A stretch of DNA of 33,748 bases from a virus (lineage: Duplodnaviria; Heunggongvirae; Uroviricota; Caudoviricetes). A program made the position numbers and the translations under genes. Below are positions 31,255 through 31,346 of this stretch, one piece after another; position 1 is the first letter of the stretch; each line of letters starts with the position of its first letter. The notes beneath the pieces are model-generated. The model did no database searches, was not told the DNA's origin, and saw only the letters and a list, made by a program, of their open reading frames with translations. The DNA lies in the IMG/VR virus record IMGVR_UViG_2718218139_000002, one strand, 5' to 3'.

Positions 31255-31293
31255 AAGAAAAATATATTTAAATTGGTGCAAAAACTTGGACGC

Positions 31294-31325
31294 ACAAAGC
31301 TTTGTACTGGATTACAAAGCTTTGT
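31294..31325. repeat. Two copies of the 12-bp perfect palindrome ACAAAGCTTTGT, 8 bp apart
   Basis: Read directly at 31294-31305 and 31314-31325 between the convergent tailspike and integrase genes. Confidence 0.8.
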
Positions 31326-31346
31326 GTCATTCGATAGTTAAGGTGG

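Follow-up and report, generated by a model that had tools for sequence, protein, structure and literature searches.

The two 12-bp palindromes that lie between the convergent tailspike and integrase genes of this prophage are the arms of a single stem-loop. This hairpin is part of the 3' flank that goes with integrase modules of the IntS/HK620 type, and the window (the whole stretch of 33,748 nt analysed here) carries a rare "perfected" allele of what is otherwise a common quasi-palindrome. The element is already known: its homologue in phage HK620 has been annotated since 2001. As to its role, we consider it somewhat probable that the hairpin forms or protects transcript 3' ends in both directions.

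Genomic context of the palindrome pair

The window is an integrated P22/Sf6/HK620-like prophage at argW. The features around the palindrome pair are:

29227-31254, + strand: tailspike gene, 675 aa, convergent with int; PHROG tail spike families, P22-type head-binding N-terminus
31255-31280, + strand: A/T-rich spacer of the tailspike module, not common to other integrase modules
31281-31346, - strand: conserved 3' flank of the intS-type integrase module, comprising a T-run region and the hairpin, then the spacer that leads to the int stop codon; from BLAST and alignments
31347-32540, - strand: integrase gene of the IntS/Sf6/HK620 type, 397 aa; PHROG 1 integrase, E = 4e-81
32666-32740, - strand: tRNA-Arg(CCT), argW, the attL boundary of the integrated prophage; ARAGORN
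32816-33748: host gene yfdC, after argW; Pfam Form_Nir_trans, formate/nitrite-transporter family

The gene order yfdC-argW-intS matches that of K-12, and K-12 intS is 96% identical in DNA sequence to the integrase gene of the window. E. coli matches to the tailspike gene are annotated as "phage head-binding domain-containing protein". The gap between tailspike and int (31255-31346, 92 bp) is without a conversion gene; the sequence-only reading, which had described the slot for such genes (oac, gtr) as empty, was correct on this point. BLAST similarity to HK633, HZ41, K-12 CPS-53 and others begins at 31281; the spacer at 31255-31280 recurs only in prophages of E. coli Z1323HEC0422 and LR-24 whose tailspike genes match, and there it is accompanied by the tailspike 3' end and by the hairpin allele of the window.

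Elsewhere, the prophage looks defective: a gene for a CI-like repressor (5245-5946, - strand) and a Cro-like HTH ORF (within 5845-6222, + strand) are followed, after ~430 bp, by ninB (6658-7110), and neither cII nor full-size replication genes were found in the region 5245-7110. Just downstream of the repressor gene, an imperfect 18-nt inverted repeat (5118-5165, 83% complementary) is probably its terminator-like hairpin. To the left of the repressor gene lie two large ORFs that overlap stop to start (391-2868, + strand, 825 aa; 2865-3857, + strand, 330 aa) in a low-GC block (35-39% vs. about 49% in the phage core); they have zero matches in Pfam, PHROGs, PADLOC and NCBIfam, and may represent accessory or defence cargo not yet characterised. 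An immI-type region (27954-29125) immediately before the tailspike gene encodes an Arc-like ribbon-helix-helix ORF (27954-28178) and an antirepressor Ant (28181-29125); dimeric regulators with palindromic operators are thus encoded nearby, with no link to the hairpin.

The palindrome pair is one stem-loop

The 12-bp perfect palindrome ACAAAGCTTTGT occurs twice in the 92-bp spacer, 8 bp apart, exactly as first described from the sequence, and the 8 bp between the copies read ACTGGATT. The copies and the structure that they form are:

31294-31305: palindrome copy 1, core of the hairpin 5' arm; exact match to ACAAAGCTTTGT, pairs with copy 2 in the MFE folds of both strands
31314-31325: palindrome copy 2, core of the hairpin 3' arm; exact match to ACAAAGCTTTGT
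31292-31327: whole stem-loop; stem 31292-31306 with 31313-31327, loop 31307-31312 (CTGGAT)

The pair is not a chance event. Allowing up to one mismatch, ACAAAGCTTTGT has only these two matches in the 33.7-kb window (0.21 expected), and the arms are the sole close inverted repeat of at least 14 nt in the window that is 100% complementary.

The two palindromes are present, but not as the two separate sites that they had been taken for: they make up one 36-nt hairpin-forming palindrome whose inverted repeat outruns the 12-mers. At the DNA level the arms are perfect over 14 bp (31293-31306 and 31313-31326), and the RNA stem on the + strand has 15 pairs, the outermost being G.U. Complementarity continues beyond the 12-mers on both sides (A31306-T31313 inside; C31293-G31326 and the G.U pair outside), whereas the direct-repeat identity ends at the 12-mer edges. 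Twin palindromes are seen because the arm core, CAAAGCTTTG, is self-complementary, so that its perfect inverted repeat reads as a direct repeat too.

The hairpin starts 19-21 nt past the int stop codon, and its stem is A/T-rich, with 4 G-C among 14 Watson-Crick pairs. Folded alone as RNA, it reaches -20.0 kcal/mol on the + strand and -19.2 kcal/mol on the - strand, and folds of the 92-nt spacer have z-scores of -4.4 and -5.5 on the two strands relative to shuffled sequences. A search of 30900-31700 with the Rfam 15 covariance models at a permissive E-value returned only three sub-threshold chance matches (E 3.3-4.2).

The hairpin belongs to the 3' flank of the integrase module

Alignable sequence is found ~20 nt downstream of the stop codon of IntS-type integrases in relatives of the window, which defines the hairpin as a family by homology. 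In HK620 (GenBank AF335538), feature 38289..23 is labelled "terminator for prophage excision transcript; XIS" (Clark et al. 2001; the annotation is a predicted one). It reads ACAAAGCTTTGCACTGGATTGCAAGGTTTTGT, which runs across the record origin as ACAAAGCTTTGC ACTGGATT GCAAGGTTTTGT, and 31294-31325 of the window aligns with it base for base, 28 of 32 positions being identical. Both elements come straight after an integrase gene of one and the same type and have 12-13-bp arms with an 8-nt spacer. They differ in their arms, which in HK620 are the common imperfect ACAAAGCTTTGC and GCAAGGTTTTGT and in the window are perfect, and in what lies downstream, an O-antigen modification gene in HK620 and a convergent tailspike gene in the window; the T-run of the window also lies further from the stem.

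The hairpin between intS and yfdG in K-12 CPS-53/KplE1 is the same conserved unit after the 96%-identical integrase, but its arm 2 is GCAAGACTTTGTG, with one mismatch and one wobble, and the next gene, the gtrA-like yfdG, lies on the same strand. We found no annotation or study of this K-12 hairpin; the paper on KplE1 intS covers the promoter side in attL only (PMC2951348), and the epsilon34 paper has nothing on the hairpin site. A search of 5,426 complete E. coli genomes detected the family in 2,412, K-12 among them, and the hairpin follows int in many prophages of E. coli, Shigella and Salmonella.

We also scanned IMG/VR with a pattern anchored inside the 3' end of int, which leaves the sample unbiased by the hairpin itself. 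Among 119 loci with this int 3' end, 77 (about 65%) have the full hairpin, 10 (8%) a single arm and 32 (27%) none. A scan of genome contigs with a degenerate pattern for the int C-terminus gave 39 loci from many genera, in which the hairpin was found outside E. coli in one Citrobacter locus only, so that the scan brought no gain in power for covariation analysis.

In K-12 (L003, about 1490-1500 and about 1588-1600) and in IMG/VR loci linked to gtr, the complete hairpin unit lies between the two copies of a 9-bp inverted repeat (TTGATGAGA / TCTCATCAA). The right copy consists of the int codons for LDE, and predicted folds pair the repeat over about 85 nt; it is absent from the left flank of the window.

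The window carries a rare perfected allele

The dominant form among 51 distinct hairpin sequences is the imperfect CACAAAGCTTTGC ACTGGATT GCAAGGCTTTGTG, and the copy 2 arm in relatives is GCAAGGCTTTGT or GCAAGACTTTGT, neither of which is a perfect palindrome. Typical relatives have 12-13 of 13 inter-arm pairs; within the arms, 5 of 6 and 4 of 6 pairs are palindromic. Only one of the 51 variants has a perfect palindrome in each arm, namely the allele that the window has in common with one IMG/VR contig (L083), and the exact 48-nt window allele occurs in 3 of the 5,426 complete genomes. Through a compensated change from G-C to T-A at stem position 7, some variants keep the stem with the palindromes broken; CACAAATCTTTGC...GCAAGGATTTGTG is an example of a kept stem with broken palindromes.

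The perfect allele may have arisen from the common quasi-palindrome through a few changes, each of which strengthens pairing: the top pair of the stem (T.G or C-G) would have become T-A, and the G at stem position 9 an A. Point mutations suffice for this, as intermediate alleles exist; one of them, ACAAGGCTTTGT in L012, has the same T-A top pair and is one step off. In E. coli, template switching is known to turn quasi-palindromes into perfect ones (PMC5941160, PMC7202029), and by analogy such correction could be an equally good route. The case resembles the Ripley/Lovett template-switch model (PMC7202029, PMC5941160) in that an imperfect repeat common in the population is perfected here and every difference from the consensus improves complementarity; it differs in that single point mutations would do, given intermediates such as L012.

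The single-arm variants (L049, L051, L017, L064, L072 and others; 10 of 119) resemble 20-bp deletions between the direct-repeat arms, the form expected from slipped mispairing. In L068, the hairpin has its loop inverted (AATCCAGT), a palindrome flip.

Mosaic joint and sequence constraint

An alternative to any role in RNA is that the hairpin is a functionless, neutral quasi-palindrome that marks a mosaic joint: it would hitch-hike with the 3' end of int, provide homology for module swaps and keep its hairpin look through template switching between the arms. Similarity to many phages breaks off at or inside the hairpin (31281, 31290, 31293, 31306 and 31314), which favors this alternative. So does the setting of the same tailspike with the perfect allele: in the window its neighbour is a complete intS at argW, and in three E. 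coli genomes a 58-bp int fossil at dacD/sbcB. In Z1323HEC0422 and LR-24 (L127 and L128, 3001-3120, by dacD), the tailspike end and the perfect hairpin are followed by 58 bp of the int 3' end and then by an attachment region of the 2851/mEp234 type; the breakpoint of the fossil in the three genomes is that of phage mEp234. The hairpin also lingers as a fossil in phages with other integrases (mEp234, Stx2 phage 1717, 2851, 434 and Sf101), and hairpin and int fossil are kept together in many lambdoid phages (434, the Stx phages 1717 and 2851, Sf101, Gally and JEP4). Comparison of these junction sequences indicates that the integration module has apparently been exchanged through the short shared hairpin segment.

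A neutral element would also fit the 35% of loci that lack the hairpin or keep a single arm, the loop flipped at one locus (L068), and the outcome of the covariation analysis: in 68 distinct homologues with the named structure, covariation was not significant, 90.9% of cells being paired in the alignment and the same in shuffles, and double changes occurred at 2 pairs only. Selection for pairing as such is thus not demonstrated, and RNAalifold gave a weak consensus. What tells against neutrality is the arm sequence. Nucleotide diversity of the arms (pi 0.12-0.145) is below that of the second codon position of int (0.167), with the third position at 0.246 and the 5' flank at 0.46; and in the Salmonella phages Emek and g341c, whose int is about 65% identical to that of the window, the arms are identical to the E. 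coli consensus at 25-26 of 26 positions, which is hard to reconcile with neutrality at an int divergence of about 35% unless the segment was recently exchanged. Taking both sides together, we regard a purely neutral joint as unlikely, though with an appreciable chance of being right.

The arms are conserved in sequence beyond what pairing alone accounts for, which also counts against a pure structural element, since such an element would not require it. The near-identity of the arms across diverged int genes, their low variability, the lack of significant covariation and the recurrence of T.G at the same position could point to a sequence-specific recognition element, bound by a host or phage protein or an RNA and serving control of int or of the adjacent conversion genes, or to a dedicated hot spot for exchange of the integration module; we consider this improbable.

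The stem was also inspected for wobble pairs as a guide to the relevant RNA strand. There are 64 G.U against 18 A.C overall, and 24 against 18 without the ancestral T.G at stem position 9; the asymmetry is uninformative once that position is set aside. The + strand is on average 3 kcal/mol more stable across the hairpin loci, owing to the same position-9 T.G.

Possible protein binding at the palindromes

The sequence-only reading had offered the palindromes as sites for a dimeric regulator, a recombination directionality factor (RDF) or Int, and this does not hold up either among relatives or in motif frequency. The twin perfect form is found in 1 of 51 variants and in 3 of 5,426 genomes, against 2,412 with the family, and relaxed matches (up to 3 mismatches) in the window number 20 vs. 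23.2 expected, that is, chance. The pattern ACAA-N4-TTGT occurs in the window at these two places only. The arm-type sites of IntS (TAAA-containing), its core site and five sites of the RDF TorI have been mapped in attL, upstream of int (PMC2951348), and the GGGTAAAA repeats in the attL region of the window and of HK620 bear no resemblance to the palindrome.

A wider version of this idea takes the hairpin site as a protein-binding site in duplex DNA, either as two dimer sites or, in a variant of the idea, as a lambda CII/P22 C1-type box. It would account for arms that are conserved in sequence without covariation, and the two palindrome centres lie 20 bp, or about two turns of the helix, apart. 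Yet both arms are perfectly palindromic in just 1 of 51 variants, extra copies in the window are not above chance, and the site is unlike the mapped IntS arm and TorI sites, which lie in attL (PMC2951348). For a CII box in particular, the family consensus reads TTGC-N6-TTGC-N6-TTGT, an exact TTGC-N6-TTGC is present in 51 of 77 hairpin loci, and a record of phage 434 (OL657226; L170 2510-2533) labels the sequence as CII binding sites, by pattern matching. Against this, the window allele is degraded to TTGT-N6-TTAC; no acceptable -10 element stands at the right distance (about 13 nt downstream), in the family consensus as well; a promoter there would point antisense into int; the prophage is without a cII gene; TTGC-N6-TTGC is at chance in the window (3 vs. 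2.8 expected); and the annotated cII site of HK620 itself has N5 spacing. We rate binding of a protein to the duplex as quite improbable. A promoter activated by CII or C1 is rejected for the window, where the box is degraded and both the -10 element and cII are missing.

Likeness of the arms to 434 operators (ACAA...TTGT) was rejected as well: 434 operators have a spacing of 6, and the spacing here is 4. Compared by eye, the arms gave no fit to the motifs of sigma54, CRP, TyrR, IHF or LexA.

Possible termination at the hairpin

The remaining proposal of the sequence-only reading, a bidirectional terminator, is closer to the mark than paired protein sites, but it needs qualifying: HK620 carries a terminator annotation on its homologous 32 nt, whereas the window has no U-tract on either strand and its terminator scores are strongly negative. 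A stable stem-loop, as an intrinsic terminator has, is found on both strands (-19 to -20 kcal/mol). A uridine tract immediately 3' of the stem is found on neither: the tail after the stem on the + strand is CATTCGATAGTT (also given as CAUUCGAUAGUU), and the int-sense tail is GTCCAAGTTTTTGC (also given as GUCCAAGUUUUUGC), in which a U-run begins 7-8 nt after the stem. Because it lacks a U-tract, the hairpin is most likely no canonical intrinsic terminator.

A terminator scan found nothing at the hairpin site. With our own implementation of a d'Aubenton-Carafa-type score, in which a control terminator reached +30, the window allele gave d of about -50 to -65, with T scores of 0.3-0.7; the core stem gave about -40 to -65 on both strands; and the family consensus gave -38, or about -10 in the int sense if the weak lower stem is counted. 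The searchable supplements of E. coli Term-seq studies contained no intS entry.

A second, smaller structure lies next to the hairpin:

31342-31356: second small hairpin, GGTGG-TCACT-CCACC, overlapping the int stop codon (31347-31349); followed by TTTTCATC on the + strand

Its d is about -12 vs. about -50 for the big hairpin, which makes it, by the score, the better if borderline candidate for an intrinsic terminator of + strand (tailspike/late) transcripts; late or tailspike transcription may in fact end here. In relatives without the big hairpin, the small hairpin is often a stronger 6-bp one, GGTGGC..GCCACC-TTTT.

Comparison with lambda sib

The position of the hairpin right behind a phage integrase gene, from which it could affect the fate of int mRNA, recalls lambda tI/sib, and a sib-like retroregulator would act as an RNase III target in read-through RNA and destabilise int mRNA made from an early leftward promoter. 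The position immediately 3' of int, the long perfect double-stranded stem of 14-15 bp and the weak lower-stem extensions in the folds would suit such a role. The stem is, however, below the usual length of RNase III substrates, which are typically roughly two helical turns long. The likeness also stops short of sequence: there is no similarity to lambda tI/sib and no Rfam match.

The arrangement of the attachment site also tells against the comparison. In lambda, attP lies between int and sib, and integration disconnects them; in the IntS/HK620 family, attP lies upstream of int (the attP core is annotated there in HK620; PMC2951348), so that integration leaves the hairpin joined to int, and sib control depends on exactly that separation. 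In the integrated window, argW and attL are found upstream of int, with the hairpin still adjoining the int 3' end, and the uncoupling typical of sib does not occur. Moreover, intS has its own promoter in attL and is autoregulated (PMC2951348). We consider sib-like retroregulation highly improbable.

Proposed formation or protection of transcript 3' ends

The reading that we favor is that the hairpin, once transcribed, would define or protect RNA 3' ends. Dar & Sorek (2018, PMC6061677) found that E. coli transcripts terminated by Rho carry, at their steady-state 3' ends, stable stem-loops that lack U-rich tails and act as barriers to PNPase and RNase II, and the window hairpin likewise is a stable stem-loop with no U-rich sequence after it. 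Like members of that class, it is energetically stable, comes soon after a stop codon, lacks a uridine tract and is followed by an untranslated region; the likeness concerns how the hairpin would work, which makes it a candidate for the class rather than an established member.

The int and tailspike transcripts converge on the hairpin, which could serve both of them; its use in both directions would follow from the perfect palindrome, which folds equally well on both strands. Past the hairpin, each of the convergent transcripts would enter the untranslated antisense of the other gene, where termination could be Rho-dependent or diffuse, and the stable stem-loop would then stop 3'-5' exonucleases that trim back from there. 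The next 100 nt have a mild excess of C over G: the C/G ratio is 1.43 in the int sense and 1.61 in the + sense, against a median of 1.0 and a 90th percentile of 1.56 over the stretches compared. As a terminator or as an insulator between int and the downstream module, the hairpin would be weak at best.

Several observations weigh against this role. Covariation is not significant, the arms are conserved in sequence as well as in pairing, and the terminator label in HK620 is itself a prediction. The conserved T.G at stem position 9 in the most common allele is a wobble on the + strand and a C.A mismatch in the int sense, which argues mildly against the int-sense RNA as the selected form. The hairpin is also dispensable, with one arm lost in 8% of loci and the whole hairpin absent in 27%.

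Conclusions

In conclusion, the reading of this intergenic region is clarified: it contains a single hairpin rather than two sites, and it illustrates how a striking "double palindrome" can arise as a by-product of a self-complementary stem arm combined with perfect pairing. If the hairpin sets the 3' ends of int mRNA, the tight control of IntS reported for KplE1 would gain one more detail. The element is also a modest example of phage mosaicism, in which a short conserved unit serves, if only passively, as the point where integration modules are exchanged; should it prove to be a dedicated exchange hot spot, it would be one between lambdoid and P22-like phages.
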